The notes under the pieces: generated by a model | Seen by the model: only the letters and a program-made list of their open reading frames with translations | What the model was told of the DNA's origin: nothing | Database searches by the model: none | Shown: positions 2,199-64,000 of the stretch, one piece after another | Numbering within the stretch: position 1 is the first letter of the stretch | Layout: each line of letters begins with the position of its first letter | Made by a program: the position numbers and the translations under genes | Virus record (IMG/VR): IMGVR_UViG_2574179769_000003 | Coordinates: 13,748 to 77,747 of that record | Reading direction: 5' to 3' (one strand) | DNA: 64,000 nucleotides | From: a virus | Taxonomy: Duplodnaviria > Heunggongvirae > Uroviricota > Caudoviricetes

Positions 2199-4350
2199 TT
2201 ATATATTTAACCATGTATTTCTACTTAAGTTTTCTTTTTTTAGTATTGCTCTATTGACCGTATCTAAATCTCCTATATGGAAACACTTTTCTTTCATTCT
2301 TGTAAGCCCAACATAAATCAAATTGCTATTGAGCATATAAGTGTGACTTGATGGTGTAAATAAAATTACCACCTTGGCAGCGGAACCTTGAAATTTATGC
2401 AGCGTACAAGAATATGCTAATTCGACATTTTGCATATCCGTCTTTTCATATCCAACAAGCAAACCATTGAAATCTATTACAATCAAGCCTCTTTTTGTAA
2501 TATCAACTATTACCCCTGATTCACCGTTTGCAATAAACGTTTGTTCGTTGATAAAGTCATAACAATCTTCGCCCCACATTGTTCCCTTTGAAACAAGAAA
2601 AGCTTTTCGATTATTTTTTGTTTGCATTACAATATCGTTAACATAAAAATTTGTGTTATGCGCTTCGATATGAATATCTGACACCTTACGTTCTTTGTTA
2701 GCTATTGGTTGTAACAATCTGTTAATATTTATACACCCATAATCACCTTTGCGATATGATGACAATACAACCACATCTGAGGTAGAATATCTTTCCAATG
2801 TTTTCGCATAAACTTTTTTTTATACAGTCTAATCCAGCCTCCTTGTCATAGTTCATAAATAAATAATCTTTGTTTTCTCCAAATGCAGTAACTTTATTAT
2901 CATATTTTGTTAGATACAGTTTACAATTTCTTACATCAGTAGCTACTTTCATCAATCCACCCTCGCCATATCTAAATACCTTTGTCAGCATGGTTTTAGG
3001 TATTTTTTTTGATGTCAGTAAGTCATGCATTACGTTTCCACAACCTACTGATGGTAACTGGGCAGGGTCACCTATTACTAGTAGTTTGGTTATATTAAAG
3101 TCGATTGCTTCCAATACAGTTTTGAACAAGAATACATCTGCCATCGAAAACTCATCGATTATAAGCACATCGCAATTCAATTTATTAAACGAGTTATATC
3201 TCCATGTAGGCGGTTGATACCCCAATCCAGTATGAATTGTTTCGGCTTTTGATCCAGTATATTCCGATAAAACTTTGGCAGCTTTTCCAGTTGGTGCAAA
3301 CAAAGCAAACCACTTACTCTTATCTGTTAACATATTAATAATAGCTTTTGCTGAAAACGACTTTCCCGTTCCTGAATATCCGACTAAAATACTAAATTGA
3401 GATTTACATAAATTATGAATGCTAGACAACTGATCATCAGTCAATTCGTATTCATCAATAGTTCTGTAATTTTCAGGATTAACTTCGTATATATCATTGA
3501 TTTCTAACGCCTCATTTATTCTGTATTTTATATACATTTCGGCTTCGTATGTAACTTTTCTCGATACAAAAACATCATTATTTTTATCCTTATTGTAATA
3601 AATATCATCATCTTTGATTGCTTCAAAGAAATGTTGTGAACATTCAGGGGTTACACTTTTAACGATTGATAACAATTTTAGAATATTTATTCTAGTACTT
3701 CCGTTATTTTCAGTTTCGGTAAGATTATATAAAATGCACTCTCTACACCTTTGTAAAGAGGTTCTTAAATTATAACCGAACTCAACAATTCTGTTTTTTT
3801 GAAGTTTTAAAAGTAATTCATCTGCACTTTTAAAACCAATTCCACTCAAAGAACACATACATTTATATGGTTCTTGAATAATTTTTTTACGTACAATTTC
3901 GATTGAAGTATACTTGCTGTACATTTTTCTTAATACATTTAATGAAATATATCCTTTAAATTCATTAATAAGGTCAATTAACATAAAATTATCAATTATT
4001 TTATTCTTGATTTTTTCAAATGTAACATCTTTAATACCTTTAACTAATGACAAATCAACATCTTCATTATCCAGAACCATTTGGATAATATTCGGATAAT
4101 GAAGATACAATTCTGAGGCTTGCCTTTCTGTACATATAGTTCTAAGAAATTGATATGTTTCTTGCTGATTCACTGGTTTATCTCTTGATATCGAAACTAC
4201 TTTATATGTTGTTCCATATTTGTTTTTAGTTGGTATTCCAGTAATTTTATAGTCAGTATTTAAATCCAATTCAGATATTTCTCCCATAATAGACACATTT
4301 CCGTAATTATTTGCAATTACCCTAGGATTTGATTTAAAATCAACATTCAT
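2199..4350 (-). CDS. RecD/TraA-like SF1 DNA helicase (two ORFs joined across an A8 homopolymer frameshift near 2806..2813)
   Basis: Walker A LVGYSGTGKSF, Walker B VLIIDEFSM, VIGDPAQLPSV motif; the downstream fragment carries AYSCTLHKFQGS (helicase motif VI) and YVGLTR. Removing one A from the A8 run fuses the frames (DCIKKVYAKTLERYSTSD). Confidence 0.75.
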
Positions 4351-4424
4351 AGCATATATCCTAAAATTTTCTTTAGAGAAGGTACATCTATTTACTTGCC
4401 CTGTAAATACCGTTTCTTTTTCTT

Positions 4425-7400
4425 CTATAGTTTTATCACCTCATAATCATTTAATATTTCTTCTACTTCATCAGTTGCTATCCATTTCCCTTCAGCATCA
4501 GGTCGCTTTTTAAATTCTTTATCTAACTCCTTTATGCTTAAAACCGAAAACTGGTCAAATGGGTTGTCTCTGAATTTTTTTCCTCTTTTAATTCTTGTTT
4601 TTATCTCTTGTCCATTGTTTAAGTTTCTTATAATTAATCTTGGGGTTGTTGGATTATTTCCTATAACAAAATCTATAACTATATAATACATATTGTTTAT
4701 TTCAGAGTTTGAATAATCAGTATATCCTAAATTTTCAATTTCAAATTTTATCTGCTTTACTACTGGCATTGGTTTTGGGCAAACTTTCTCTAAAGTTATT
4801 GATAGTTCTTTCAAAAGGCTCAAATTATCAATATCTCTATATTGTTTTGGAGTAATTTTTTTTGAATACTTCTCTAAATAATATTCCGATATTCCTATTT
4901 TTTCTAATTTAGATTTTGAAATAATTTTAGCGTTTCTTAATTGAATGTATTTATTATAAACTTCTTCCAAATAAACGTTATTGCCAAAATCCGAAAAATA
5001 ATTAAGACCAATCAAAATCCTTGTTTGTCTTTCATCTAATGATGTTTTACTCATATCATCTAATAATTCTATAAAAGAACTATAGTTATTTTTTGCTAAT
5101 TCAAACAACTCTTCTGCGATCTGACCATTACAATATTTTATACTCTCAATGCCTTGATAGATTGAATTTGTTTTCTTATCCATATAAAATTCAGCCTTAG
5201 AATATCCAAATCTTATTCCATTAACATAACAACCTTTTTGGTTTATATAATTTTTAATATTTTTCATTTTATCAGCATCGCTTTTGTAAATATTTAGTGC
5301 AGCAGTAAACGTCTCTAATGGATAATAATGTCGCAAATATCCACAAGCAAATCCTAAGAATGAATATGGATCAGAATGATTCTTACTAAATAAATACGAA
5401 CTTGCATCTTCTATTACTTTTAAAAAATTGACAATTAATTCTTCTGATTCATTCTCTTTCACCCCATAATTTTCTTTCATAGTTTTAAAAAAGCCCTTTT
5501 TTATATCAGGAATATATTTTTCAGTACCAGTTTTTTTAGCAAAACCACGTCTTATTACATCTGCTTGACCCATCGAATATCCACAAAATATATGCAAGAA
5601 TTCTATAACTTGTTCTTGATATACGAGATACCCTAATGTTGGCGCCAGGAATTCATTTAATGCATAATGTCCATTATCTCTATATAATCCTTTAGCTAAA
5701 CTATCACGATAAGATGCGCCCGCAGGCCTTATTGCCCCATTTGCCATAGACATTAAGTCTATATATGAAAAATCTGGATTTTTTTCTCTTATTTTTTCAA
5801 TTACTTCTGGCTTTAATATATCTTTTAAATAATTACCTGCAAAATCTGATTCAAATTGAAAAATCAATGTGGTATCTTTAGCTAAATCTTCCCAAACATT
5901 CATATCAGTAAAATCCATATTTTCAGGTAATAAAAAGTCTATTTTTGCAAGCTTGCAGGTTTTATAAATTAGTCCAACACAGTCTAATCCAAGTACATCC
6001 AGTTTTACATAATTTAAAGAATCAATTTCTTTCATGTTGATTTGTGAAATTGGGTTTTTGTTTGTTTTACTTCTAAACGTTCCAAATTTTCCTTCAATCG
6101 GGTAAGGCGAAACTACTAGTCCAGCAGGATGAGAACCTACAGAAACTATAGTGCCTGATACCAAATCAACATATTTAAATAATTTTGGATATCGTTTTCG
6201 GTATAATTCATCAATTTCAAACTTTTTGTTATCATTTAAGAATACTGCATTGCTAATTTCTTGAGTTTCATTTAGCGACATTCCCAAAGCACGACCGATA
6301 TCCTTAATTGCACCTTTCATTTTGATAGTGTTAAATGTAATAATATCGCAACAATAAAGACCATCTCTTTTAAACAGATAATCTCTTACCATACCTCTGT
6401 CTTCATTAAACCAATCTGTGTCAATATCTGCTAAGGTAATTCTTTCGGTATTCATAAATCTTTCAAAATTCAAATTATATTTAATACTATCTATTTCAGT
6501 AATTCCCAACAGATATGCAATTACACTTCCAGAAACCGACCCTCGTGAGTATCCAAAATTCACTCCTTGTTTTTTTAGATATGACTTGTAATCTTCTTCA
6601 AGCAACAAAAAATCAATTGCCTCATTATGCTTATAAGTTTGCAACTCATAATTAATCCTTTGAATATAGTCTTTGTAATTTGGAAATTTGTTAATCCCCC
6701 TATTTTTTACACCTTCAACAATTTTTTTCAGTAATACACCTTCAGAATCGTCATACAATTTCGGATATTTTTTTGAATAATCTAATCTGAATTCTTCAAC
6801 CATATCACTCATTATGTTTGTATTCTCAATTGCTTGAAGATACACTTCTTCTGGTAATGCATTTTGAATTTTATATGCCTCAACTAACTCATCATATGTT
6901 TTGAAAGACATATCCCAATTATTTTCATCATTTCCAAAGTTCACCCTTTTACCAATCTGCAAAACTCTTCGCCCCTCTAAATCCTCTTTTGTTAAAGCGT
7001 GAGTGTCAGTTCCAGCGATTAACGGTATTCCAGTTGTATCACTTATATTCTTTAAATATTGATTATATTTTTTTGAAAAGCATCATTATGATGTTGCACC
7101 TCTAAAAAACATCTATGCTTGTTTTTTATTAATAAATTTAAAAATCTTTTTTGAATCGCTTTATCTCCCTTTGCAAGAATGCCACCTACGCAAGCTGTAG
7201 TAATGATAATATTGTCGCTGGTTTCTTCCAATTCTTTTAAGCTAATTCTAGGGTGATAATATTTATGATCTTCTTCAAACGCAATTGAAGATAGTTTATT
7301 TAGCTCTTCAACCCCATTGCCATTTTTTGCTATTAAAACACAATGATAATTATCTCGAATCTTCTCAGATAATTCTTCGGTAACATAAAATTCTTCAGCA

Positions 7401-8789: not shown

Positions 8790-9922
8790 TTTTTATTTTT
8801 TAAACTATCTAAGTATTTTTTATGTTCTTTTTCGTCATATTTTATTTTATACTTCATTAAAAATTCGAATATATTACTGCTCTTATCTGCAATAGAATCT
8901 TTGGGATTTAATAAATTATATTTATCATATGTGTAATAAACATTTCTGATACCATAAAATTTTTCGCACATATGACGTATTTCATTAATACTTATATCTT
9001 TATCCAAACTAATGATAATATCTACATTTAAACCAATTAAAATCCTTGCCTGTTCCGAACTTAATGTGTGTCCACTTAAAGCTACTCCAGTTGGATCTTT
9101 TCTAGAATGTCTTTTTAATACACTTTTTTCCGATTCATATACAACTACATAACCATATTTTGTTATATCTTCTTTATTTTCCCATAATCCATATAGGTTA
9201 TGACTTTTTGGGTAAGTAGGAGTAATAAAATATTTTTTTATTCCCAATTCTTCATAATTATCAATAACTGTTCTCTGATTATATCCTAGCAATTTACCAT
9301 CAAGCCAGTATCTTAAGGGAATTATATTTCTCTTATATAAGTGACTATATGCTAACCCGAATTTTTTTATGGTTTGTGGAACAATGCCTTCACGAAACCA
9401 ATCAATATGGATATACGGTATATAATCAATATTCTCCATTTCATCCAAATCTATGTCTTGTACATAAACAGTGCTTCGTTTGATTTTTTTAAACACTTCT
9501 AATGGATCATTAACTTGTTTTTTTACTTTAACATCTTTATTGTATGTTAATGGTATATCAAACAATTTGTGTACATATTTAATTGCTTCTCGAAAATCAA
9601 AATTTTGATTAGTTCTAGAAAAATTATACTGTATCAGTGTAAATATATCTGATTTGATCTCATCATTACTTTTAAAGTATTCTTCTCTTGTATAGTTACG
9701 AACATTAATATATTTATTATTATTAACAACTATACAAGAAGGATTATCTCCATCAATGTTCCCACAAGTAAAATATTCTTTATTTTTATTATATTTAATA
9801 TGATGACATCCAATTTCATTTAGAACATATTCGATCTTACAATTATTAAAAATGTATTCTTTTAGTTCTAATCCTGTCATCTTTAACCCTCTAATAATCC
9901 ATTGGAACGTTTGTGAATCCAA
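8786..9922 (-). CDS. dnaG: DnaG-like DNA primase (zinc-finger + TOPRIM)
   Basis: N-terminal CHH...C...C zinc-binding segment; TOPRIM-like YVVVYESEKSVL ... SLDKD acidic motifs; lies between the helicase loader/helicase and polymerase genes. Confidence 0.55.
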   Translation of the reverse strand: MDSQTFQWIIRGLKMTGLELKEYIFNNCKIEYVLNEIGCHHIKYNKNKEYFTCGNIDGDNPSCIVVNNNKYINVRNYTREEYFKSNDEIKSDIFTLIQYNFSRTNQNFDFREAIKYVHKLFDIPLTYNKDVKVKKQVNDPLEVFKKIKRSTVYVQDIDLDEMENIDYIPYIHIDWFREGIVPQTIKKFGLAYSHLYKRNIIPLRYWLDGKLLGYNQRTVIDNYEELGIKKYFITPTYPKSHNLYGLWENKEDITKYGYVVVYESEKSVLKRHSRKDPTGVALSGHTLSSEQARILIGLNVDIIISLDKDISINEIRHMCEKFYGIRNVYYTYDKYNLLNPKDSIADKSSNIFEFLMKYKIKYDEKEHKKYLDSLKNKN

Positions 9923-11342
9923 CTTCTTTCAAAATATTTCTACTTAAATCATGTTCAACTACTATCTGATATGTATTGGCTGCACCCTCTCTGTTTTTAA
10001 CAATAAATATTATTTGATAATGCTTATTATCAGCCAATCTTACTGGCACCTTTGACAATCCATTTTTACCAGCATACGTATAGATATTTAACGCCCGTTT
10101 ACCGCCTGGTCTTTCATCGTCAAATAATGTTCTTATCATCAAACAGGTACTTGCAGGATCAACAATATTTTTTGCCATACCAATATTGTCTTGAGTATAA
10201 TATCTTTGCATTACACTTCCTTTTGATAATTGAAATGTGATAAGTATATGTACATTTTTACTCTCTGGTTTTACAATATCGTTAATTTCAACCATGTTTT
10301 GTTGCATTTGCAACCATGCATGACTCTCAACCTTTCCTGCATCCATTTTATAAGTGTCTAGTGCAAAATATCTAATACCAAGACTTATGTATTTATTCAT
10401 AATTTTAATAACATTTTTAGTTTTATACTTTTTAAAAGGAATTATAGTAATAACATTATCTTTGTCTTTATTTTCTATCCATTTTGCTGCTTCAAGTAAT
10501 AATTCTTTGGTCTCATTTTTGAAAGAGCCATCTCTAACTGTTTGTTTTTGAAGATCTTTTTTTATAACATTATTGGCCACATATACCAAAAATTCACGTT
10601 GCCATTTTTTTAGTCCATCCTCATTAAGCATAATGACTATTTTCTCATTATTTTCAATAATGCTTGGTATCGTAGAACTTCTTAAAAAAGCAGATTTTCC
10701 AACATTAGAGAGCCCACCAATTAAAGTAATTGAACCCATATATTGTCCGCCAGTTTCATTAGTTAACATCCTCATGTTGTGATATGGTAAACCAACTGCC
10801 AACCCTTCATCTAATTCATCAATTAAATCTCTAATTTTGTAAGATATACTGTATGACTTCATATCTGTATCAGCATTGATGAATATATCATTAAACATAC
10901 ATTCATATTCTTCATAGATTTCTTCAGTTGTACAATCTATAAATTCTTTTAACTTGTTGTCATCAACAATAATTCCCATTTTACAGAGTTTTATTACTAT
11001 GTTCCATTTTTTCAATTCACTAATATATCCATTAAAATTATCTTCAGAAATATATTCGATAGCATTTTTTATAGTATTATAACCGCCAAAATTTTCATAA
11101 ACTGTTTTTAATTTTGGATGTTTTTCTAAATATAAACCAACAGTAATAACATCTAATACATTCTTTTTTTCAATATTATATAAGTCATTCACTATTGCAA
11201 AATATACCTTCCAAGCATTATTGGTAAAATCATTAATGCTTAATTCAACGTTGGATAATAATTCAGGTTTTTTAAATAATATTGAAACTATATTTGCTTC
11301 ACAAGGCAACTTGATTTCAGCAACCTTTTTAATAGTACTCAA
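9891..11342 (-). CDS. dnaB: DnaB-like replicative DNA helicase
   Basis: DnaB N-terminal domain-like start (EANIVSILFKKPELLSNVELSINDFTNNAWKVYFAI); P-loop GGLSNVGKSAF in a RecA-like C-terminal domain. Confidence 0.7.
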   Translation of the reverse strand: MSTIKKVAEIKLPCEANIVSILFKKPELLSNVELSINDFTNNAWKVYFAIVNDLYNIEKKNVLDVITVGLYLEKHPKLKTVYENFGGYNTIKNAIEYISEDNFNGYISELKKWNIVIKLCKMGIIVDDNKLKEFIDCTTEEIYEEYECMFNDIFINADTDMKSYSISYKIRDLIDELDEGLAVGLPYHNMRMLTNETGGQYMGSITLIGGLSNVGKSAFLRSSTIPSIIENNEKIVIMLNEDGLKKWQREFLVYVANNVIKKDLQKQTVRDGSFKNETKELLLEAAKWIENKDKDNVITIIPFKKYKTKNVIKIMNKYISLGIRYFALDTYKMDAGKVESHAWLQMQQNMVEINDIVKPESKNVHILITFQLSKGSVMQRYYTQDNIGMAKNIVDPASTCLMIRTLFDDERPGGKRALNIYTYAGKNGLSKVPVRLADNKHYQIIFIVKNREGAANTYQIVVEHDLSRNILKEVGFTNVPMDY

Positions 11343-11392
11343 CCTTTCTTTTTCATATCCATTTAATATATTTTTTTCTATAATACAACCTC

Positions 11393-12999: not shown

Positions 13000-13014
13000 A
13001 ACTTCTCTCTTTAT

Positions 13015-15185: not shown

Positions 15186-15280
15186 ACTAAAGCTTGATGC
15201 ACCTCTTTTTAATCCATTTTGTTTTCTGCCATTAAATCCTCCATTTTCTTTTTTTTATTTTAAATTTATTTTCAACGTTA

Positions 15281-18897: not shown

Positions 18898-18898
18898 G

Positions 18899-21195: not shown

Positions 21196-21209
21196 TTCAT
21201 TTTCCTTTC

Positions 21210-22040
21210 TTAAACCTTTATAACTTCAATTTTCTCGTGTTTTCCAGTAAATAAACTATTAGTAGTAAACAGTCTTTCTACTGTGCCATCTTCCAGTGAT
21301 TTAATTAAAGTTCCTCTTTCTCTATCTAAAATACTATTTTCGCAATGACTTACATAAGCATAAATCTTTTTTGCTCCAAGTTCTTTTAATTTATTTGCAC
21401 CATAATACATTGATCCACCATAACTACAAATATCATCAAACATTAATACGGTCTTGTCTTTCAAATCAATTTCGTTTGTAATTATTTCAAGCCCCATAAT
21501 TTTCCCGCTTGTCCAATCACGATGTTTTACTCCATAACAAGTTTTAAACCCACGAAATAAATCTTCGTATTTTTTACTAGCCCCATTATCGGGGAAATAA
21601 ACAATTAAGTCATCTTCATTAATATTTTCGTTAATATTAATATCTCTTAATATAAGTCGTCTTACAAATACATTTAAGTCAAGTAAATATAAATTATCAA
21701 TCAAAGCTTCGCTAACTGGCGAATGTGGATCAATTGATAGCACTTTTTTAAATCCTAATGAATTTATAATATTGGCGAAATATTTTAATGTAAATACATC
21801 TCTCTTTGTCTTGATTCTATCCATTCTTGCGTTAGGAATATATGGCATATGTAATTCATTTTCTTTTCCACCATGCTCTTTTAAATAATTTGTAATATAA
21901 ATTAAAGCAATTAATTCTTCTTCATTTTCATAATACCATTTGATAATATTAACTGTTTTAATTTCGCATGAAGGAGTTAAATGTAATGTGCCATCAGGAA
22001 AATGATTTAGTTTTAATTTACTATCATTAATTAAAATCAT
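21210..22040 (-). CDS. prs: ribose-phosphate pyrophosphokinase family protein (Prs- or Adps-like)
   Basis: VLMFDDICSYGGSMYYGANKLKELGAKKIYAYVSHC corresponds to the PRPP-binding loop of Prs-family enzymes. Confidence 0.7.
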   Translation of the reverse strand: MILINDSKLKLNHFPDGTLHLTPSCEIKTVNIIKWYYENEEELIALIYITNYLKEHGGKENELHMPYIPNARMDRIKTKRDVFTLKYFANIINSLGFKKVLSIDPHSPVSEALIDNLYLLDLNVFVRRLILRDININENINEDDLIVYFPDNGASKKYEDLFRGFKTCYGVKHRDWTSGKIMGLEIITNEIDLKDKTVLMFDDICSYGGSMYYGANKLKELGAKKIYAYVSHCENSILDRERGTLIKSLEDGTVERLFTTNSLFTGKHEKIEVIKV

Positions 22041-22041
22041 T

Positions 22042-22573
22042 TTATATCACCTCTATTTGGCAGGAATTTATTGTTTTAAGTGCATATTTATGATTTTCTG
22101 AAGTTGTTCCAGCACAACACTTTGAATTAATAACAATATGTATTTCTGGACAGAACGTCTTAATTAGCAATGCGTTACTTACTACACAGATATCAGTACA
22201 TAATCCAACAATTTCAATATCAGTAAACTGATGTTTTTTTTACATATTGAGCTAATTTTACTGACCCAAATGTTTTCTTTTCAAATAATTGTTTTGGTTT
22301 AGGTTTAATTAATTTTAATATTTCTCCATTCAAACACCAACCATAGCTCCCCTTAATACAATGAATTATTGGTAAATTTATACCTTCGTTTGTATTGAGA
22401 TAATTCTCGTTATGTGTATCTAAAGTAAATACTATTCTTGAATCAGGCTTGTCTTTATATTCTTTAATTTTATCTATAACATTTGGTAAAATTGCCCTAG
22501 CTTCATTTGTTCCCAAAGAACCATCAATAAAGTCATTTTGCATATCCACCACAATTAATAATTTCTTTTTCAT
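22042..22573 (-). CDS. pncA: isochorismatase-family cysteine hydrolase, nicotinamidase (PncA)-like; frames joined across an A8 run at 22232..22239
   Basis: N-terminus LLIVVDMQNDFIDGSL...TLDTH; the shifted C-terminal part has IVGLCTDICVVSNALL with the catalytic Cys. A7 instead of A8 fuses the frames. Confidence 0.6.
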
Positions 22574-22582
22574 TTCTTTCTC

Positions 22583-23338
22583 CTATTGTTCTAGCATAAC
22601 TAAATTGTTAATATAATCTCTTTCATCTGTAAATAATGGTATGTTATAATCAATAACCCAATTTCCATCACCATCTTTAATACAACAAACACCTCTTTGT
22701 AATTCATTGGGTAATTTATCCCAATGAACACCTTCCTCAACAGACAGTTTCTCTTTTAATTCATCACAATTCAAGCCTTGCATTTCATTATGTGAGAATC
22801 TAGATTGAGCCAATGCTTGAATACTATTTCTAATAGCATCCTGTTGTCTCCAAATCAAGCAGTTCACAACTTCATGCTTAGGCAAATTAAATGCCCTTGA
22901 ATCAAATGAAGCTTTAAAGCATCTCTTTTCCCATAAATTTTCTTCATCTGGAAAATATACCGCACTAAAACAATTTTTTGATTCAACTTCTTGATTGAAA
23001 TATAAAGTGGCTAAAGCTGCACTTGTTGAAACCATTTTTTGAACTTTATTATCAAACCAAGCATCGCTGTTGATATTTTTATAGTCTACTAAAACAAGTG
23101 TTATCTCATCGCTTTGACAATAAGCCAAAACGCATCCTTGAATTTGTTGACATAATTTTTTCATTGTATGCTTCATAACATCACAAAAGTCTATATCAAA
23201 CGGTTTATTTAGACCTTTAGTAAATGTATGGAAAGCTTTGCCATCAACACGAATAATAACAGGCAATCTTCTTAACAGCTTTGTTTGTGATTGATTTTCG
23301 TATTCTTTCATACGATTTCCTAATTTTGTTTTATCCAT
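22583..23338 (-). CDS. Thg1-like protein (tRNA-His guanylyltransferase family, 3'-5' nucleotidyltransferase)
   Basis: RLPVIIRVDGKAFHTFTKGLNKPFD matches the Thg1 palm-domain signature (VRxDGRxFHxF...KPxD). Confidence 0.6.
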   Translation of the reverse strand: MDKTKLGNRMKEYENQSQTKLLRRLPVIIRVDGKAFHTFTKGLNKPFDIDFCDVMKHTMKKLCQQIQGCVLAYCQSDEITLVLVDYKNINSDAWFDNKVQKMVSTSAALATLYFNQEVESKNCFSAVYFPDEENLWEKRCFKASFDSRAFNLPKHEVVNCLIWRQQDAIRNSIQALAQSRFSHNEMQGLNCDELKEKLSVEEGVHWDKLPNELQRGVCCIKDGDGNWVIDYNIPLFTDERDYINNLVMLEQ

Positions 23339-25929: not shown

Positions 25930-26553
25930 TTATTCATATTTTCTGAAAATTCTTTGAAATATATTTCTTGATTTAAGTGTAAAGATTTCTTTATTAAGTT
26001 TCTCAACTATGTTTTTTAGCGAGTAATATGCTTTATCAATGTCATTTTGCAGATTTTCATTATTTCTATACCATTTGTTTGATAAATAGATACTTTCGCC
26101 AGATGTTTTAATCATTGCTAATGATCCGATTTGTGGCAAATCCAAATTATCAAGAAGAATTTTATTGCAGTGAATATTCCCAGCAACTGATGAGTTTCCC
26201 CACATATCGTGATGAATAATATTTGTATCACATTTATTTACAGCTTTAAATTGACAATTTTCATCATCATATTTTATATAATAATATTCAAATGTTTTAT
26301 TTGATAATTCAAAAGGTAAAATATCACCCTCATATATTAATTCATCATTCAAATCTGTTAATCCAGTACACATGTTTATAACCCAATCTTCACCACCAAA
26401 AACATACGATGCTTCAAATTTAATGTCTGAATCTTTATTGCAAACAAACCACATTTCACCCTCAATAACTTGAGAGTAAAATGTTAGATCATAGTAATCT
26501 TCAATATCGCCCTGATAAAATGCTCTAAATTTCTGTTCCATTTTACAAACCAT
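25930..26553 (-). CDS. YopX-family phage protein
   Basis: KFRAFYQGD...MCTGLTDLNDELIYEGDIL matches the YopX signature (KFRAW..., GL.DKNG..IYEGDI). Confidence 0.55.
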   Translation of the reverse strand: MVCKMEQKFRAFYQGDIEDYYDLTFYSQVIEGEMWFVCNKDSDIKFEASYVFGGEDWVINMCTGLTDLNDELIYEGDILPFELSNKTFEYYYIKYDDENCQFKAVNKCDTNIIHHDMWGNSSVAGNIHCNKILLDNLDLPQIGSLAMIKTSGESIYLSNKWYRNNENLQNDIDKAYYSLKNIVEKLNKEIFTLKSRNIFQRIFRKYE

Positions 26554-27238
26554 ATTTAATAGCTATTTCTTTAACAATTGCTATATATCCTTCAATTAGT
26601 TTTTTATCATCTGCAATAACATCTAAACTATTTGTTCTTTCTATTTTAGATTTGCAGACACCTTCTTCTAACATTCTTCTACGTTTGTTAGTCAATCTTG
26701 TTGGCAAATTAACTCCCATTCTACGTTCAAGAAGTTTATAAGACTCATTTCTAACATCCTTAAAAGATACTTCACCATTTGAACTTGTACTTATTTTTCG
26801 TAACAACTTATTAGTTTCATCTCGCCATGATGTGTGATCAATAGCTACAACTTCTCTAATACCCTTAACATCATCTTTGACTTGTTTAAGTTGTTTTTCA
26901 TGTTCATTTTGTTTTAGTTCTAGTGAAATCAATAATCTTAGTTCGGGTGATAAATTCTGTAACTGCAATTGAGTATCACGTGCTTTATTTTCAACTGTTA
27001 CAAAATAATCTCTTGCTTCTTTTCCTCTAACCGAATGAGATTCCATAGATAAGTGTTTGGCAAAGTCTGTTGTTAGCTTATAATCTTTACATTTATTACC
27101 GCTCGACATGATGTCGAACCCCCACCAATCCTTGTTCTCATCATAAAATATATTCTTCTCTATGTTCTTTTTAGCCCATCTTGCAAATTGCGTTGGTGCT
27201 AATTCTAAAAAATCATACAACTTTCTGGCAGTTGTCAT
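26543..27238 (-). CDS. AntA-like phage antirepressor
   Basis: RKLYDFLELAPTQFARWAKKNIEKNIFYDENKDW resembles the AntA N-terminal domain. Confidence 0.5.
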   Translation of the reverse strand: MTTARKLYDFLELAPTQFARWAKKNIEKNIFYDENKDWWGFDIMSSGNKCKDYKLTTDFAKHLSMESHSVRGKEARDYFVTVENKARDTQLQLQNLSPELRLLISLELKQNEHEKQLKQVKDDVKGIREVVAIDHTSWRDETNKLLRKISTSSNGEVSFKDVRNESYKLLERRMGVNLPTRLTNKRRRMLEEGVCKSKIERTNSLDVIADDKKLIEGYIAIVKEIAIKYGL

Positions 27239-27303
27239 ACCGTTTTCATCTATTCCTAAAGCAATCTCGATAGGAGTTTGCTCTGTTGTTTTTAATATAT
27301 TAT

Positions 27304-28275
27304 TTATAATTGTTCATTCCTTTCTTGTTTTTTAATTACATCAAACATTTCTTCAATGTTATTTGTTAGCTTATACCTCTTAGTTGATGTACTGTTTCGA
27401 GCAAACTTACCTTCAACTGCATCTACATACATATTAGAAGATCCTTCTTCTCCTTGGTAAAACTTATCCCATGCAGAATCTGAAATCCATCTACGTACAT
27501 TTAGTTGAGTTAAAGCTAAATTATCAAAGCTAACTACCTTAAAATTTTTAAATAACCAATCGATGTTTCTACTTAATTTAATGATTCTATTTTCTATTTC
27601 AACTCCATTTTTTTCATATAACTTATTTCCTCGTCGAAAATGTTTATAACCTAAAATTAATACTTTTGGATTAGAAAAATTATTGATTAAATATGATAAT
27701 TCTTTGTAGTCAACTAATCCTGCAATAACATGGAATACCACATTTTCTACCTCACCATATACTTCTTTCAAACATTCTGATTCTTTTATAAAAGATACTC
27801 CAATTCCATGAAGATATCCTTTTTCTTGCCAAGACTTTATCTTATCTATATTAGATACAAATTCATCTTGATGAAAAGTAGCATTAGTAACAATTCCTTT
27901 TTTATATAACTTTTCTAGCAATTCATCTAAATGTGGGTAACTAGTCAACATTCCACCGCCGAGCGCTGCTTCAGAACCAGATACCCAACTATTGATAAAA
28001 TCAAAGTTTTCTAGTGGTGCATGTTTACCTTCTGGGGATGAGTTTTCGTGACACATGTCACATCCAAACGTGCAACAATTAGTCACTTTAATGTCCATGT
28101 TCATTGGCATTTTAAAATTAAATTCTTTATCTTCTGTTTGACATATTCTTGTTCCATCAGTATATAATTCAATATTTGCATTGCCATTTCTATATGTTCG
28201 CAATAAACTAACCGTCATAACCATATTCTCCAAATGCCACAACAATTTCACCTGAAGAAGTTGTAAATTCATCAT
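27304..28275 (-). CDS. radical SAM enzyme (CxxxCxxC)
   Basis: VTNCCTFGCDMCHE contains CTFGCDMC = CxxxCxxC; GGGMLTS glycine-rich segment downstream. The true start is probably internal (overlaps the next ORF by 68 bp). Confidence 0.55.
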   Translation of the reverse strand: MMNLQLLQVKLLWHLENMVMTVSLLRTYRNGNANIELYTDGTRICQTEDKEFNFKMPMNMDIKVTNCCTFGCDMCHENSSPEGKHAPLENFDFINSWVSGSEAALGGGMLTSYPHLDELLEKLYKKGIVTNATFHQDEFVSNIDKIKSWQEKGYLHGIGVSFIKESECLKEVYGEVENVVFHVIAGLVDYKELSYLINNFSNPKVLILGYKHFRRGNKLYEKNGVEIENRIIKLSRNIDWLFKNFKVVSFDNLALTQLNVRRWISDSAWDKFYQGEEGSSNMYVDAVEGKFARNSTSTKRYKLTNNIEEMFDVIKKQERNEQL

Positions 28276-37030: not shown

Positions 37031-37486
37031 TTTTATGATGATTAATACACGTTCTGTGATTTTATGGTACTCATAGTTTTAATCATCATGATTGACAACA
37101 AATTAATAAGGGGGCTATCAATTTATTGTCAGATTTGTTAATCTCAACTACAGTGTGAGCTAACTCAATATAGCTGGTGGGGCGATTGTTCCCACATCTC
37201 ATCGGATATTACAAAATACCCTAACTTTACATATTGCTATGTGTGATAGCCATCTTTCTATCCTCAGCTACTTTGATTGATAAAACAGTCTACCCAAACA
37301 TTTACAGCATTATGTCTATAATGTTTCTTCACTTACTGTCATGTACATGGTTTAATCCATTAGCTTCCCTTGGCAAACTTGTCTAGAATTATTTACCAAG
37401 ATAGTACCCCTAATCAATTAATAGCTACCAATCAAAACTATTAGTTGATTTCAAATATTTTTTTTTGAGATGAGTTTTTGCAATTA

Positions 37487-37697: not shown

Positions 37698-37774
37698 TAT
37701 GGTGGACGTTATCGGATTTGAACCGATCAACTGAGAATTATGAGTTCTCTGCTCTAACCTATTGAGCTAAACGT
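37698..37774 (-). tRNA. tRNA-Met (anticodon CAU; elongator or Ile2-type), CCA encoded
   Basis: Hand-folded cloverleaf: acceptor GGACGTT/AACGTCC, D-arm GCTC-AATAGGTTA-GAGC, anticodon arm GAGAA-CTCATAA-TTCTC, T-arm ATCGG-TTCAAAT-CCGAT, discriminator A, CCA. Confidence 0.8.
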
Positions 37775-37802
37775 CCAAATTGTAGAAAATAATTTCTACA
37801 AA

Positions 37803-38883: not shown

Positions 38884-39117
38884 TTAAAAGGATCTGAAAG
38901 TTTTTTTTGTTCCCCTATTGTAGTTTTCCATACATTCTAATAACTCATCTGGAGTAAAATGACTTATTTTTTTTCCAACAAGCATTTCAAACTTGTTTAC
39001 TATTTTTGTATATATAGAAAAATACTCATTGTCTTTATTAAAATCAGGGTTATCTTCCAAAATATATTGAACATAATTATCAAAATTAGTTATATAATCT
39101 TTCTTCATTTTGTCCAT
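38884..39117 (-). CDS. hypothetical protein
   Basis: 77 aa ORF downstream of a consensus promoter. Confidence 0.4.
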   Translation of the reverse strand: MDKMKKDYITNFDNYVQYILEDNPDFNKDNEYFSIYTKIVNKFEMLVGKKISHFTPDELLECMENYNRGTKKTFRSF

Positions 39118-39179: not shown

Positions 39180-40161
39180 TTACATTTTTAACAAAACCTG
39201 TTTAGAATCGCTTGTACCATGAGTATAAACATTCATAGTTACAGTTGATCCTAAAGAATGCCCACACTGCTCTTGTACAAAAGCCAAATCCTTAGTTGTT
39301 CTATATAGTTCGCTCGTGTAAAAATGTCGCAGCATATGTGGAGTAATGGTGCCTTGAGAATATTTTTTAAAAGCCTTAATAATATTATCCTCTTTAATTC
39401 TATCACCACTTCTTGTTAGAAATAATGCATCACATTTTGGACTTAAATAACTTCTGTATTTAAGCCACTCTTGAATAGCATCAGAAGCAGATTTTGACAT
39501 ATAAACCACTTCGTATTCTTCTTTGATGTAAGAGCCTTTCCTTAACACATCAATATAAGGTAAGTCTTCATCTAAATGCACGTCGTTCAAATCTAGTCCA
39601 CACAACTCAACTTCTCTCAAACCTGTTCCTTTTAGAACTTGGTATATCGAAAAGTATTTATTTTTTGATATTAAATTAGGAATTTTTTTTCAAGTTATTT
39701 TCTAACATAATTAAATCTTCTGTTTTGGGCAACTTGTTTGAATTTTTTTTATGTTTAGTTTTACATACAACTGTAACACTCCTTTTTATTGGAGTATTCT
39801 CAATTATTCTTTCTTCAACAAGGTAATTGAAGAAAGATGCTAATTGATTTATTTTAGTGTTTACTGTAGAATGCTTATACTTCTTTACTTCTATTAAATA
39901 AATCAGATATTCTCTTACAGTTCCTGGTGTTACAATATTAATATCATCAAAACTGTCTATAACATTCTTTTCCAAACACCATTGAATAAAATTATTGATA
40001 GTGCTTAGATAATTTAACAATGCCTGATTACTTCTTACAGTACTATTGTTAAAATAATTTGCAAACTGTTTTGGAAATTTATACTGATTAAGCAATTTAT
40101 TTAATTTAGTTTTATTTTGTAGTTGCTTTTCATCTTTATACATATTTATATTCCTTTCCAC
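39180..40161 (-). CDS. tyrosine recombinase/integrase (SAM-like N-domain + catalytic domain; frames joined across an A8 run at 39683..39690)
   Basis: C-terminal ORF has ITPHMLRHFYTS (HxxR) and CGHSLGSTVTMNVYTH (catalytic Tyr); the N-terminal ORF 39676..40161 resembles the Phage_int_SAM domain. Confidence 0.7.
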
Positions 40162-59799: not shown

Positions 59800-61000
59800 T
59801 AGTATAGTCCTTTTACATGCTATAAGCTATTTATTTAACGTATAAAGGCTAAAATGATATTATAGTAGGTAAGCTAAGGTATATAGGTAATGTGGCTTAG
59901 AATGGAAATATTTGATTTATAGAGTATGTGAGTAGAGATATGATAATTGTAATAGTAGATATGCTAATGTAGTAATGTGGATATAGGATACACATAAAAA
60001 CATAGAGTGATGTAAGCTACATATACAGAAAATATTATAGCAATGTACCAATATAACATATTAATGTAATATATTAATGTAGTGCTCCAATATAGTATAT
60101 TAGTACTATGCTATAGTAATATTACAGTTATAGTAGATAGAGTTAGTGGGTTAGTTAGATGAATCTGGTTAATTGACTTGATATGGTTGATTGATATGGT
60201 TGGTTGGATTGGATATGTAGTGTAATTGACATAACTGTATTAATGTAATAGTACAGTAGTACAGTTGATAGTGTCAACTAATATAGTCGGTATATAGATA
60301 TAATTACTACTAAAAGTAGTTTTCGATACCGTTTCTAAGCTGATACCAATTAACAACCCTATCATCAACCAGACCAACTCACCAACTCAATAAATTGTAT
60401 TAAAATCAGTACAATACAATAAATAATACTGTACTACTATAAGTAGTATGGTATTTTATTTTAGATAACCCGGGGTATATCGAACTTTTCAAGCTATTTA
60501 AAACTGCTTAAAATCGCCTATCTACCCCATTTTTCTACCACACGATCACCCCAAATTTCACCGACCGATTAAAATTTACTATCCAACAACCATAAAAATC
60601 ACCCTATTTTAACTTTTTCAAAAAAATACAATTTTGCATCATATTTGTCCACAAACCTATCGGTAACTTATCGGTATAACTACCTTAAATACCCCTACTT
60701 TATTACCATAATCTTCGTATATTCTAACCATAACTATCCAACCATCTAATTAGCAATTTATTGTATTTTACAATTAATCATTAAATCACCTTTTCACTTT
60801 ATCCCTAAACATCCGTATTATCTCCGAAGAACAAAAAGTTGTATATTTTGATTTAAAACCGACCTTTAAAATACCTATTTCTATCCTTATTAATATATTG
60901 ACTTATTTGCGAAATTTTTCAGCATTATTAACAACATTAAAACCTAATTTACCGAATCGGTATATCCGAACCTGAAATAGTCAAATTTTAAATCCCAAAA
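59800..61000. other. 1.2 kb ORF-free region with extreme strand asymmetry (C-poor until ~60300, then G-poor), internal inverted and direct repeats and TATCGGTA/TACCGATA iteron-like motifs; candidate origin of replication or long non-coding locus
   Basis: No ORF >60 aa in any frame; left half is almost only A/G/T (TAG/GTA-rich), right half A/C/T; repeated words (GATATGGTTG x2, AGTACAGT x2 with inverted partner TACTGTACTACT at 60430, TATCGGTA x2-3, GATACCG x2). Confidence 0.4.
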
Positions 61001-61042
61001 AATCAAACTTGCAATTTTGATATATTTTTTTACTTTGCTAGT

Positions 61043-61071
61043 TGACATCAACTTATATTTAGTGTATAGTG
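61043..61071 (+). promoter_or_regulatory. sigma-70 promoter TTGACA-17-TATAGT inside a copy of the ACTTTGCTAGTTGACATCAACTT repeat (plus strand)
   Basis: TTGACA 61043..61048, TATAGT 61066..61071; an inverted partner of the repeat lies at 61131..61146. Confidence 0.6.
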
Positions 61072-61439
61072 ATTGTAGTAACGATAGCTGGATTGTTTTT
61101 CAGTCCAGTTTAAATTCAAATATATAATGTTACTTAGCAAAGTAGATATTAGCTTATTAAATCAATTTTAAGAAACGTTTTATTGATTTGTGACTATTTA
61201 TACCTATTCAATTAAATGTTTCTTAGAATTAAAATATAAGCCATATTTAGATATATGACTATTTTGGTGATGACATATATATTTGATATGAATAATTACT
61301 AAATCTAATCGAAAGGAGAAATATTATGAATACAGGTTAATCTATTACAATAATTCAATCTATCTTAATTTATGATATGGTTATCTACTGTCATCCTACT
61401 CAGTAATTAACAAGATAGCAGAAAATATAATACGTCCAA

Positions 61440-61600
61440 TCCCGAATCGAGTTTACGTCAGTAAACGACGATAAGGGTTGGCGAGCGCCGAGCACGTTAG
61501 TGCGAAGGTAAGACAAGTGAAGCGCAGCGAAACGATTCTCTTTCTGTTCTTTTTGAAAGGGTAAAAGCATTCTCTGTGCGCCCCCATATAACAATTTGTA
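61440..61600 (+). ncRNA. GC-rich structured element (candidate cis-regulatory RNA or small RNA) in the 5' leader of the rightward early operon
   Basis: ~50% GC island inside ~25% GC flanks; hairpins GTTTAC-GTCA-GTAAAC, GCGCAG...CTGTGCGC and GAGGC...GCCTC; lies between the 61043 promoter and the first gene, preceded by a 4-codon mini-ORF (ATGAATACAGGTTAA) with RBS. Confidence 0.35.
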
Positions 61601-61821
61601 TCTATTTCATTTATTTTAAGAGGCAAGGGTACGCCAGTAACCGCCTCGAATATCTCATTTATATTGAAAGTAACAAAAAGATTATATTTGTATATTTAAT
61701 TTGGCATTACATTTGAATAAAAAATATTTACTTTTTGCCAAGCGAGGTATAAAAAATATTAACCTTTTGTCTTAATTTAAGTATAAAAAATATTAACTTA
61801 TTGTCAAAAAGGAGGAAATCA

Positions 61822-62601
61822 ATAATAAAAGATCAAACAAAAAAAGATAATTTCATAATCATTCCCAAACATATTATTCAAGAAGGTGTCAAAAATAATA
61901 TTTACTTAATGACTTACATTTATCTTATGTATAGAAAAAATGGCAATGACGGTGTTGAATTTTCAAAAAAATCGTATTATTCGTTTATGGGAATAAAAAA
62001 GCCACAATTAAAAAAACAAGCTGATATTATTTTGGGTGATATATTAGAAAAATACAGCAATGCAATTATTAATATTGTTGATTTGAGTTTAAACGACTTA
62101 ATTAACATTAAGCTCAATGTTGTAGATAGTAAAAAAAAATTTAAGGAATTGCATCCTGAAAAAAATGTATTTAAATTTGCTAAAATATATTTTGACGAAA
62201 TAGATTTAATTATTGAGCAGGAAAAAAAATCTGAATTATCAGTATCAGCAAAAAAAATATTCCTATTCTTATCCTACCATCGCCTAAAGATGATTAAAAG
62301 AAATGGCGCCTTAGTAGAAACAGCTCCTGAAATTTCATATTTTCGTATAAATGATTTATCAGAACAGATAAATATAAGTATGCGAACTATATCACGTATG
62401 CTTAAAATCTTAAGCGATATTAAAATTATCAAGACTAATCAAACAAAAACATTAAAAATCCCAGACACCACTTTTTTTATCAAGGGGTATATCATCGTGG
62501 CGGATTACCATTCTCGGGATATTAAATACTCAGCAGAAGAAAATCTCAAATATGGTGTTGAGTATGTAAATAACAAACTGAACGAAAGGAGGAAATTATA
62601 G
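61822..62601 (+). CDS. putative replication initiation / replisome-organizer-like protein (HTH); probable ATA start
   Basis: ORF track begins at TTG 61801, but the RBS AAGGAGG (61809..61815) is followed 6 nt later by ATA ATA (61822); C-terminal HTH-like ISMRTISRMLKILSDIKIIK; position typical for a replication initiator. Confidence 0.4.
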   Translation: MIKDQTKKDNFIIIPKHIIQEGVKNNIYLMTYIYLMYRKNGNDGVEFSKKSYYSFMGIKKPQLKKQADIILGDILEKYSNAIINIVDLSLNDLINIKLNVVDSKKKFKELHPEKNVFKFAKIYFDEIDLIIEQEKKSELSVSAKKIFLFLSYHRLKMIKRNGALVETAPEISYFRINDLSEQINISMRTISRMLKILSDIKIIKTNQTKTLKIPDTTFFIKGYIIVADYHSRDIKYSAEENLKYGVEYVNNKLNERRKL

Positions 62602-62614
62602 TGCATAAAGATGA

Positions 62615-62975
62615 TGAGTTATTTTTGGATGGATTAATAGAATCTGTAAATAACAAGTCAAGATATAAGGATTTATCCTATAAATCTGTTAATACCGCAT
62701 GGAAATCGGACATATTTAAAGATGTTAAATTTTTAGCATTGGAAAATCAGATCGCATTAAATCAGCAGTTTAGAAAAATCTATACAATATTTAACAATTT
62801 AAGCAAGATGTCTGTTAGCGATATTCAAAAAGAATATTGTAAAAATAAGAGTTTCGCAAAATGTTATCCATTAGACGCAATCGAGGCTGATGCTAAATAT
62901 AAAGAATTATTTAAACAAATTATAGATGCTTTAAAAGATAAAAATAAGGAAATTAAACCAAAGGAGGAAAATTAA
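62615..62975 (+). CDS. hypothetical protein (GTG start after GGAGGA RBS)
   Basis: 124 aa ORF; GGAGGAAATTATAGTG start context. Confidence 0.45.
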
Positions 62976-62976
62976 A

Positions 62977-63816
62977 ATAGAATTACAAGTTTTTAAAAAT
63001 AATGAATTTGGCGAAGTGAGAAGTTTATTAATTAATGGAGAACCTTACTTTGTTGGAAAAGATGTATGTTTGGCATTTGGAGATACTAACCATAAAAGAT
63101 CTTTATCAAAAATTGATGAGAATGATAAAGATACATATAGGGTTGATACTTCTGGAGGCAAACAAAACATGGTTATTATTAACGAAAGTGGTTTGTATTC
63201 TTTATTATTTGCCATGCAACCTCAAAAAGCCAAGGGGGTGTCACAAAACGAACCCCTTATACAGCAGCGTATTGAAAAATTACGTGAATTTAAAAGATGG
63301 GTAACTCATGATGTTTTGCCTACTATTCGTAAAACTGGAGGCTATGCTAATAATGAAGAAATTTTTGTTGAGTCATATTTTCCTGAGATGGACGAAGCCT
63401 CAAAACAATTTATGGTCAATTCACTAGTTCAAATTAAAGAGAAAAATAAACTCATACAAAAGCAAAAAGAAGAAATTGCTTATAAGGAAGAAGTTATTAT
63501 CAATTTAGTTGACGATGTTTCGCTTGCTGAAAAACGTCAAGTTCTTAATCGTGTTGTTAGACATAATAAAGCTAATGCACAAAAACGATGGAATACTCTT
63601 TATCGTGAATTTGATAATAAATACCATATTAGAGTTTATAGCAGAATGGAAGCATACAATAAACACAACAAACCTAAATGCAAGAATAGAGTCGACTATA
63701 TTGATAAAGTAATGGGTAAATTGCCCGAGCTTTACGAAATCGCATGTAAACTCTATGAGAACGATGTTAAAGAACTGGTACAGGAAATGTATGAGCTTAA
63801 CAATATTAAAAATTAA
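62977..63816 (+). CDS. Bro-N-domain antirepressor; start must be the ATA at 62977
   Basis: Bro-N conserved N-terminus ELQVFKNNEFGEVRSLLINGEPYFVGKDV lies upstream of the first GTG/ATG (63016); the frame opens at 62935 and contains no ATG/GTG/TTG; AAGGAGGA RBS 8 nt before the ATA; WVTHDVLPTIRKTGGY motif downstream. Confidence 0.6.
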   Translation: MELQVFKNNEFGEVRSLLINGEPYFVGKDVCLAFGDTNHKRSLSKIDENDKDTYRVDTSGGKQNMVIINESGLYSLLFAMQPQKAKGVSQNEPLIQQRIEKLREFKRWVTHDVLPTIRKTGGYANNEEIFVESYFPEMDEASKQFMVNSLVQIKEKNKLIQKQKEEIAYKEEVIINLVDDVSLAEKRQVLNRVVRHNKANAQKRWNTLYREFDNKYHIRVYSRMEAYNKHNKPKCKNRVDYIDKVMGKLPELYEIACKLYENDVKELVQEMYELNNIKN

Positions 63817-63834
63817 ACTAAAGGAGGATAAGGA

Positions 63835-64000
63835 ATAGCCGTTTATTTAGATAACGCTGCTAAGAGTAAGCCTAAAAAAGAGGTCTTGGACGTTATCGTT
63901 AAATCATTACACGAAGACTGGTATAACCCCTCTTCTCTTTACCATCCTGCCCAGGAGGTAAAAAAGAAACTTGAAGATGCCAGGTCAGTGATTGCAAAAA
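63835..64000 (+). CDS. cysteine desulfurase (NifS/IscS family, class V aminotransferase), N-terminal part, continues beyond window; ATA start
   Basis: AVYLDNAAKSKPKKEVLDVIVKSLHEDWYNPSSLYHPAQEVKKKLEDARSVIAK matches the NifS/IscS N-terminus; the frame opens at 63832 with only ATA (63835) available, 6 nt after AAGGAGGA. Confidence 0.6.
   Translation, partial: MAVYLDNAAKSKPKKEVLDVIVKSLHEDWYNPSSLYHPAQEVKKKLEDARSVIAK

Follow-up and report, generated by a model that had tools for sequence, protein, structure and literature searches.

ATA triplets behind extended Shine-Dalgarno sequences as probable translation starts of three consecutive genes in an SPbeta-like prophage of Thomasclavelia cocleata

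The 64,000-nt stretch of the virus record IMGVR_UViG_2574179769_000003 analysed here (positions 13,748 to 77,747 of the record; from here: the window) ends in a row of plus-strand genes, three of which present an ATA triplet where the start codon is expected. They encode a replication-organiser-like (rep-like) protein, a Bro-N/anti-repressor protein and a cysteine-desulfurase-like enzyme. The minus strand carries the genes at 1-58 kb, and the ATA genes open a plus-strand operon after a region of roughly 2 kb that is free of open reading frames (ORFs). The locus contains the following features, given with their lengths in amino acids (aa):

61715..61805, plus strand: three tandem 25-nt direct repeats G[T/A]ATAAAAAATATT[T/A]AC..TTG.C with a spacing of 32-34 nt, found by repeat search
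61808..61815, plus strand: extended Shine-Dalgarno (SD) sequence AAAGGAGG of the rep-like gene, from the sequence
61822..62601, plus strand: rep-like gene, 259 aa, from the candidate start ATA 61822 (second ATA at 61825) to TAG 62599-62601
62601..62975, plus strand: gene of 124 aa, function not assigned, with a normal GTG start (from the sequence; GTG conserved in the relative L004)
62960..62967, plus strand: extended SD AAAGGAGG of the Bro-N gene, from the sequence
62977..63816, plus strand: Bro-N/anti-repressor gene, 279 aa from the candidate start ATA 62977 (PHROG profiles, homologue N-termini)
63820..63827, plus strand: extended SD AAAGGAGG of the desulfurase-like gene, from the sequence
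63835..64000, plus strand: 5′ part of a gene for a pyridoxal phosphate (PLP)-dependent class-V aminotransferase/cysteine-desulfurase-like enzyme, candidate start ATA 63835 (Pfam, conservation, RefSeq)

The window has a G+C content of about 28%, and its bases 4052-10606 share 100% identity with contig PHNQ01000039.1 (358,638 bp) of assembly GCA_002803405.1, the proteins of which carry the name Thomasclavelia cocleata (Erysipelotrichales, Coprobacillaceae). SPbeta signature genes occur on the contig family beyond the window end (YonJ, a HU-like protein and YonG, in the company of a terminase-like gene), inside the window (YopX) and in the relative L062 (YorH). Because of the signature genes beyond the window end and because the IMG/VR contigs of relatives span 78-126 kb, we describe the phage as a large, roughly 125-kb SPbeta-like prophage of this gut bacterium. 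Genetic code 11 applies in the window, with TGA as a stop codon; recoding of TGA (code 4 or 25) was considered and rejected, as the ORFs do not become longer when TGA is read through. Relatives used for comparison include L001 (Logan assembly of run ERR1212030), the diverged L016 (SRR27200918), L031 (complete chromosome CP139560.1 of Coprobacillaceae bacterium CR2/5/TPMF4) and L038 (Faecalibacillus intestinalis). A single-protein scan of IMG/VR gave no matches, and the IMG/VR relatives were retrieved by an alignment-based scan. DNA searches of GenBank phages and PLSDB plasmids returned nothing beyond short Bro-N matches of 69-78% identity, and a protein search of annotated phages no close desulfurase homologue (best match 40% identity at most).

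The candidate starts share one geometry. ATA 61822, ATA 62977 and ATA 63835 are placed 6-9 nt 3′ of an AAAGGAGG element and at the N-terminus of the respective protein family, so that in each of the three genes an AUH codon (H: A, C or U) occupies this position and no usable canonical codon is available there. The element, with or without a following A, is complementary to the 3′ end of the 16S rRNA, and the spacers measure 6, 9 and 7 nt, within the range of 5-10 nt. Just 8 copies of AAAGGAGG exist on both strands of the 64-kb window, and half of them (4/8) are the ribosome-binding sites of four consecutive genes. The leaders of all four genes are essentially unstructured, with minimum free energies of −0.6 to −4.3 kcal/mol, indistinguishable from those of shuffled sequences. 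A preliminary description of this DNA had proposed ATA as the sole plausible initiation codon of three or four consecutive genes. SD geometry, homology and conservation bear this out for three of them, and the fourth, the 124-aa gene, has an ordinary GTG start at 62601, which follows its AAAGGAGG (62585-62592) by 8 nt and shares its G with the upstream TAG stop (TAGTG). Compared with the last 10,985 bases of the window, L001 shows 0 substitutions and 3 intergenic homopolymer indels, and L016 retains all three ATA codons and their SDs amid synonymous changes nearby. The ORFs are intact, the SDs are conserved, and the ratio of non-synonymous to synonymous divergence (pN/pS) in the codons 5′ of any canonical start is 0.05-0.3.

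In the rep-like gene, a 6-nt spacer separates AAAGGAGG from ATA ATA (61822/61825). The product gives weak DnaD-like helicase-loader and helix-turn-helix (HTH) matches (phrog_7882/1835, E about 1e-4), and the protein collection searched held no entry for its ATA-started form. The conserved motif DNFIIIP begins 8 codons after ATA 61822, and in the orthologue of L004 (72% identity) an ATG aligns exactly with this ATA. The TTG at 61801 that had been chosen by the ORF track lies, as already noticed in the preliminary description, upstream of the SD; it also falls within the third tandem repeat. Start-codon conservation in this gene is partial, with ATA in 3 lineages and ATG in 4: the ATA is identical in L001 and L016 and recurs after GAGG or AAGGAG in L002 and L014, and L004, L009, L012/L038/L040 and L005 carry ATG at the equivalent N-terminus. 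ATG at the ATA positions of related genomes had been named beforehand as an observation that would speak against ATA initiation. It was found for the rep-like gene only, and it confirms the start site rather than refuting ATA, because the window, L016, L002 and L014 keep ATA together with an intact SD. The aligned sequences indicate that ATG and ATA were exchanged more than once at this one column, which therefore points to tuning rather than decay.

The tandem repeats stop 3 nt short of the SD of the rep-like gene, and a promoter-like TTGGCA-16-AATATT lies at 61701; the repeats at 61715-61805 look promoter- or operator-like. The roughly 2-kb ORF-free, repeat-rich region 5′ of the rep-like gene (59800-61800) coincides with the switch of coding strand and GC skew, and contains a G+C-rich patch at 61430-61590. 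Similar ORF-free gaps exist in L002, L004, L005 and L016. The region may be a replication origin and/or a promoter-operator array; an Rfam scan of 59.7-61.9 kb gave no match, even at E<=1.

In the Bro-N gene, ATA 62977 follows AAAGGAGG by 9 nt, and the upstream TAA (62973-62975) ends 1 nt before it. The frame opens at 62935 after TAA 62932, and its first canonical codon is GTG 63016. The preliminary observation that the stretch before the conserved domain contains no ATG, GTG or TTG stands; the claim that it contains only this ATA does not, as ATA 62938, ATA 62944 and ATT 62971 are also in frame, and a workable SD spacing exists at ATA 62977 only, which is also the one triplet among them that L014-L016 all retain. 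PHROG anti-repressor profiles match from residue 2-3 of the ATA-started protein, and homologues typically open with M-x-(E/D)-L-Q-(V/I)-F at the position of ATA 62977. The arrangement of SD, 8-9-nt spacer and ATA is retained in 4/4 Bro-N lineages (window, L016, L015, L014). The 13 codons before GTG 63016 show 6 synonymous changes and 1 non-synonymous change, and in L016 this GTG is GTA, leaving no canonical codon for 48 codons. Public annotations of the protein give 292 aa (ATA 62938), 266 aa (GTG) or 248 aa (TTG), none of them the SD-supported 279 aa.

The desulfurase-like gene extends beyond the window end and encodes 377 aa when complete (L001 10820-11953). As the preliminary description had stated, and as can be read directly from the sequence, its frame opens at 63832 and offers ATA 63835: an in-frame TAA at 63829 is followed by GGA and, two codons past the TAA, by the ATA, which leads into YLDNAA. 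The spacer to the SD is 7 nt, and the ATA lies 18 nt from the Bro-N stop. Residues 3-355 of the ATA-started protein match positions 1-369 of the 371 positions of the Pfam profile Aminotran_5.

All of the roughly 27 desulfurase copies of the phage clade, down to about 50% identity, start with ATA or ATT and none with ATG. This set comprises L002/3, L004, L005-8, L014, L016, L031, L038, five IMG/VR contigs and nine metagenome contigs. The start is ATA in the window and L016, L014, L004, L002 and L005-8/L031, ATT-ATA in L009/L039 and L012/L038/L040/L043-45/L058, and ATT alone in L010/11/60 and L013/41/42. Each copy has AAAGGAGGA or TAAGGAGGA, usually an in-frame stop, and then ATA, ATT-ATA or ATT directly before [A/T/S]-[I/V]-YLDNAAK. 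About 25 cellular homologues from the same scans have ATG, a few TTG or GTG, adjoining the IYLD motif. The desulfurase codons 5′ of any canonical start differ between lineages with a synonymous divergence (pS) of 0.4-0.9 and a pN/pS of 0.05-0.3, and are therefore taken to be translated. Synonymous sites are near saturation within the clade (pS 0.6-0.9) and ATG is one transition away from ATA, yet ATG is wholly absent, which argues that the weak start codon is maintained. In public data this gene is annotated inconsistently, with 377, 360 or 326 aa. RefSeq holds the exact ATA-started protein of 377 aa (WP_092351452.1) and an ATT-started Faecalibacillus homologue, and nearly all public calls of the closest relatives start late, at codon 18 or Met46. 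The L031 orthologue (about 4040-4060) has a frameshift about 14 codons past the ATA, either a pseudogene or a homopolymer error.

At the level of sequence, codon identity, position and spacing, conservation, and purifying selection on the upstream codons agree. We consider it very likely that translation of the three prophage genes genuinely begins at these ATA triplets, near-cognate starts working together with an extended SD.

For the extent of such starts elsewhere in the phage, the window was screened for frames that are open well upstream of their first canonical codon, and only homology-backed candidates were retained; a naive SD-weighted start caller over-called ATT and ATA. About 85 of the ~90 window genes start with ATG, GTG or TTG (mostly ATG, some TTG and GTG) behind ordinary SDs, which does not fit the systematic AUA initiation that had been considered in the preliminary description. 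Four AUH starts are well supported and two more are possible, an enrichment rather than a system. For comparison, rare non-canonical or flexible starts occur in less than 0.3% of Listeria core genes (PMC13068326). The additional candidates are:

2743..4428, minus strand: RecD2-like helicase gene (N-terminal part), probable start ATA 4428-4426 (phrog_4412, OB_YrrC, homologues)
26543..27310, minus strand: AntA-type anti-repressor gene, likely start ATT 27310 or ATA 27307 (phrog_373)
9891..11384, minus strand: DnaB-like helicase gene, possible start ATT 11384 or ATA 11381 (NCBI annotation)

The RecD2-like gene, about 57 kb from the other three, probably provides the fourth well-supported case. 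Its ATA lies 7 nt after GAGGTGA (4442-4436) and overlaps the TAG stop of the gene for the alpha subunit of DNA polymerase III (Pol III alpha) as ATAG. The profile phrog_4412 aligns with residues 2-546 and OB_YrrC with residues 7-85, the Met of ATG-started homologues (45-49% identity) aligns with ATA 4428, and the start context is the same in L062. In the AntA-type gene, the SD AGAAAGGA is at 27325-27318, the ATA overlaps the upstream TAA (ATAA), and the phrog_373 alignment reaches 15 residues upstream of the first ATG (27238); a non-canonical start is likely here, with weaker support than in the other cases. For the DnaB-like helicase a non-canonical start is possible: NCBI annotates 497 aa, corresponding to ATT 11384, the alternative TTG 11342 abuts its SD, and the domain matches are compatible with every candidate start alike. 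In relatives, the conserved N-termini of HNH and NUMOD4 homing-endonuclease ORFs also precede any canonical start.

Several other explanations of the three ATA triplets were weighed. It is improbable that initiation there occurs mainly by translational coupling, i.e. by re-initiation after an adjacent or overlapping stop and not by de novo binding of the 30S subunit. The sequence TAA-A-ATA at the Bro-N start would suit such a process, as would the overlaps ATAG in the RecD2-like gene and ATAA in the AntA-type gene and the L004 desulfurase, and the ATG-TGA or ATG-TAA directly before the ATA in L002, L005/L031 and L015. However, coupling cannot explain the rep-like gene, because this is the first cistron after the ORF-free region and has nothing to couple to. 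In the window, the desulfurase ATA is set apart from the Bro-N stop and preceded by an SD of its own, and the ATG-stop motif does not occur; elsewhere the motif lies just 1-3 nt from the SD. AUAA failed as a coupled start in Escherichia coli (PMC9955659). Coupling may add to SD-driven initiation in Bro-N and at the ATAA/ATAG junctions, but cannot replace it. The ATG-stop mini-ORFs themselves (ATG TGA, ATG TAA or ATGTAA) are located at 5860-5868 in L002, at 5860-5868 and the equivalent position in L005/L031, and at about 390-400 in L015. As elements acting between SD and ATA they were judged incidental, being absent from the window and too near the SD; occurring in relatives of two different genes, they could be incidental or a 'start-stop' element.

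Initiation at downstream canonical codons (ATG 61909/61927, GTG 63016, and TTG 63886 or a later ATG), with incidental ATA triplets and shorter proteins, would agree with Prodigal-type callers and part of RefSeq, which give products of 224 aa, 266/248 aa and 326/360 aa for the three genes; the loss through gene callers amounts to 17-51 codons. We regard it as quite improbable. The downstream codons lack an SD and are not kept in the relatives: besides the change of GTG 63016 in L016, TTG 63886 is TTA in L002, L005, L014 and L016. The codons that would be skipped show protein-level conservation, their changes being mostly synonymous, and encode the family N-terminal motifs YLDNAA..WYNPSS, ELQVF..EFGEVR and DNFIIIP.

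Special decoding is very unlikely, be it a reassignment of ATA to Met or full efficiency of AUA as a start thanks to a factor of phage or host, for instance a dedicated tRNA. It would fit a phage with a tRNA of anticodon CAT, an enrichment of ATA starts (about 4-6 per ~90 genes against the Listeria value) and a host in the sister group of the Mollicutes. Yet in alignments of the desulfurase, 13 internal ATA codons stand opposite I (126), V (41) or L (25) and in no case opposite M, and therefore ATA is not reassigned. The tRNA(CAT) has a G1:C72 pair and a weak GAGAA/UUCUC anticodon stem, as in an elongator of the Met or lysidine-Ile2 type, and was rejected as an AUA initiator for these elongator features. 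No other tRNAs were found in 11 related loci, and no translation-factor genes were seen among 30 large ORFs. This tRNA (37700-37776, minus strand) resembles ileX; instead of a Met tRNA it may be a lysidine tRNA-Ile2, a reader of ATA. On the same strand, about 430 nt downstream of it, comes a skipping-rope RNA at 37169-37272 (Rfam RF02924, 48.9 bits).

It is scarcely credible that the triplets are sequencing or assembly errors, or the recent G-to-A start mutations in a degenerating prophage that the preliminary description had considered: the assembly does have homopolymer frameshifts against relatives (Pol III alpha with A7 vs A8, the RecD2-like gene, ORF 15254) and some relatives carry ATG in the rep-like gene, but the substitution-free second assembly L001 implies that sequencing error is not the cause, dozens of independent assemblies from metagenomes, isolates and IMG/VR show ATA/ATT again, and decay is at odds with the purifying selection (pN/pS well below 1), conserved SDs and intact ORFs and with the fixation of ATA/ATT across the desulfurase clade.

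Under the proposed mechanism, the ordinary initiator formylmethionine-tRNA (anticodon CAU) would pair with AUA in spite of a mismatched third position, and the extended SD of 8-9 nt (AAAGGAGGA), placed 6-9 nt upstream in an unstructured leader, would keep the 30S subunit in register, so that the near-cognate AUA is accepted despite proofreading by initiation factor 3 (IF3). Translation would be attenuated, to an expected level of roughly 10-30% of AUG, maybe conditional on IF3, guanosine tetraphosphate (ppGpp) or the nutrient state, and the genes throttled in this way, behind strong-looking tandem promoters, would be those of a replication organiser, an anti-repressor and a PLP enzyme. From other Bacillota we infer that the initiator tRNA does the decoding, how far translation is attenuated, and any regulatory use. 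Among the alternatives in the preliminary description, a start-codon regulatory mechanism fits best.

Its view that AUA initiation would be very unusual in a bacterial or phage system appears overstated, as experiments have established AUA and AUU starts with extended SDs in Bacillota (PMC13009471) and RefSeq WP_092351452.1 itself starts at ATA. In Staphylococcus aureus, Ribo-Ret and reporters identified AUA starts in infC, ccpN and citZ and an AUU start in cvfC1, all with extended SDs; such starts yield about 10% of AUG, up to 30% depending on the medium, and the AUA of ccpN is conserved with Bacillus subtilis (PMC13009471). The phage starts share with these the phylum, the location at the true N-terminus, the long SD with a short fixed spacer, the conservation of the codon among orthologues and the fact of having been overlooked by gene finders. 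They differ in that the S. aureus and B. subtilis genes encode host regulators, whereas here phage genes are concerned, three in one operon row and at least one elsewhere, and in that ATA/ATT is fixed in one gene family throughout a phage clade.

In Listeria, reporters rank ATG>ATA>ATT (PMC13068326). The rsbW gene of Listeria monocytogenes, with changes from ATG to ATA or ATT (PMC13068326), resembles the rep-like gene in a lineage-dependent ATG/ATA switch at one position, and translation from ATA is reduced but detectable there. The Listeria switches are recent strain-level mutations, whereas ATA persists here across lineages with saturated synonymous divergence. Autoregulation of infC (IF3) through AUU/AUA, and the AUU of E. 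coli pcnB, likewise represent class-II near-cognate starts that limit translation via IF3. In contrast to infC, the three phage genes code for a DnaD-like/HTH protein, a Bro-N anti-repressor and an Aminotran_5 enzyme and none of them for IF3, and there is no sign of a feedback loop; a dependence on IF3 is conjectural. Both ppGpp and a shortage of nutrients preferentially shut down non-AUG mRNAs (PMC5499595). The ATAG/ATAA overlaps of the RecD2-like gene, the AntA-type gene and the L004 desulfurase have the geometry of ATGA/TAATG stop-start junctions, but the phage start is ATA and has an SD upstream, and SD-less AUAA fails in E. coli (PMC9955659).

Some points weigh against our interpretation. 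The second ATA of the rep-like gene (61825) is an alternative start candidate, as is ATT 62971 in the Bro-N gene, with a 3-nt spacer and TGT in L015. In E. coli, AUA yields 1-2% of AUG (10.1101/063800), and an SD-less AUAA junction gave no coupled initiation (PMC9955659); the efficiency assumed for T. cocleata is therefore extrapolated from the S. aureus and Listeria data. Moreover, the S. aureus starts were mapped experimentally, those of the phage by sequence comparison. Searches of a literature library brought up no paper on ATA starts in SPbeta-like phages or Erysipelotrichales.

Besides the operon, the window encodes replication and repair functions (Pol III alpha, the DnaB-like and RecD2-like helicases, a PD-(D/E)XK nuclease and an RNA ligase), NAD-salvage genes, a Thg1-like enzyme, YopX and several anti-repressors. 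A minus-strand cluster at 18157-23338 combines NAD synthase, nicotinate phosphoribosyltransferase, a phosphoribosyl-pyrophosphate-synthetase-like gene and the Thg1-like tRNA-His guanylyltransferase, near the RNA ligase (15828-16757) and a pentapeptide-repeat protein (17235-18125); this NAD-salvage/tRNA-repair-type cluster and its neighbours may have counter-defence functions.

Several minus-strand genes are split at A-runs (around 7052-7085, 2743-2819, 15185-15254, 39676-39689 and 38884-38914), reflecting either homopolymer assembly errors or strain-specific frameshifts. Pol III alpha is present as 184+845 aa, compared with an intact 1060-aa protein (WP_092351395.1) in other strains, with A7 vs A8 at a site A AAA AAT that would also allow −1 slippage. 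The RecD2-like gene, split in the window, has a length of 716 aa in L062; ORF 15254 contains GCAGAAAAC in the window vs GCAGAAAAAC in L062; and a tyrosine-recombinase-like gene is split as well. The minus-strand ORFs 36921-36688 and 36687-36238 share one frame, with a lone TGA between them, which could be a nonsense mutation, read-through or recoding.

Adjoining the desulfurase, a 930-aa phrog_8308 gene is contiguous in L004 and L005 and interrupted in the phage of the window by a group-I-intron-like element (L001 13749-14063, about 2.7 kb past the window end; RF00028, 29.8 bits, E=1e-5, below the gathering threshold). The same site in L002 (8813-9869) and L006 (8852-9902) holds HNH_3 or NUMOD4 endonuclease ORFs, for which ATA or ATT is the sole option before the conserved N-termini. 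In L062, a single 731-aa ORF (3555-5750) encodes an AAA_24 ATPase with a Hint/LAGLIDADG (intein-type) insertion; its counterpart in the window (11857-15185, minus strand) consists of separate ORFs, 14049-13015 for Hom_end/LAGLIDADG and 12999-11857 for AAA_24.

The phage ATA starts add further cases of a known mode of initiation and leave the current understanding of initiation unchallenged. In practice, standard gene callers clip 13-51 residues, including N-termini of catalytic folds, from these proteins in nearly every public assembly; if ATA/ATT starts anchored by an SD were recognised, an entire phage protein family would be corrected. If genuine, these starts extend the weak-start, extended-SD attenuator of Bacillota to temperate phages, with clade-wide upkeep and ATG/ATA toggling, and suggest that replication and anti-repression genes have their expression tuned through the choice of start codon. 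More tentatively, and with considerable doubt, AUA/AUU may form a regular start class in this phage family or its Erysipelotrichales hosts (about 5% of phage genes), positively maintained as an IF3-, ppGpp- or growth-state-dependent switch that gates the translation of replication, anti-repressor and helicase genes in operons with strong transcription. If so, such a translational gate would make prophage induction or early lytic development depend on the translational state of the host.

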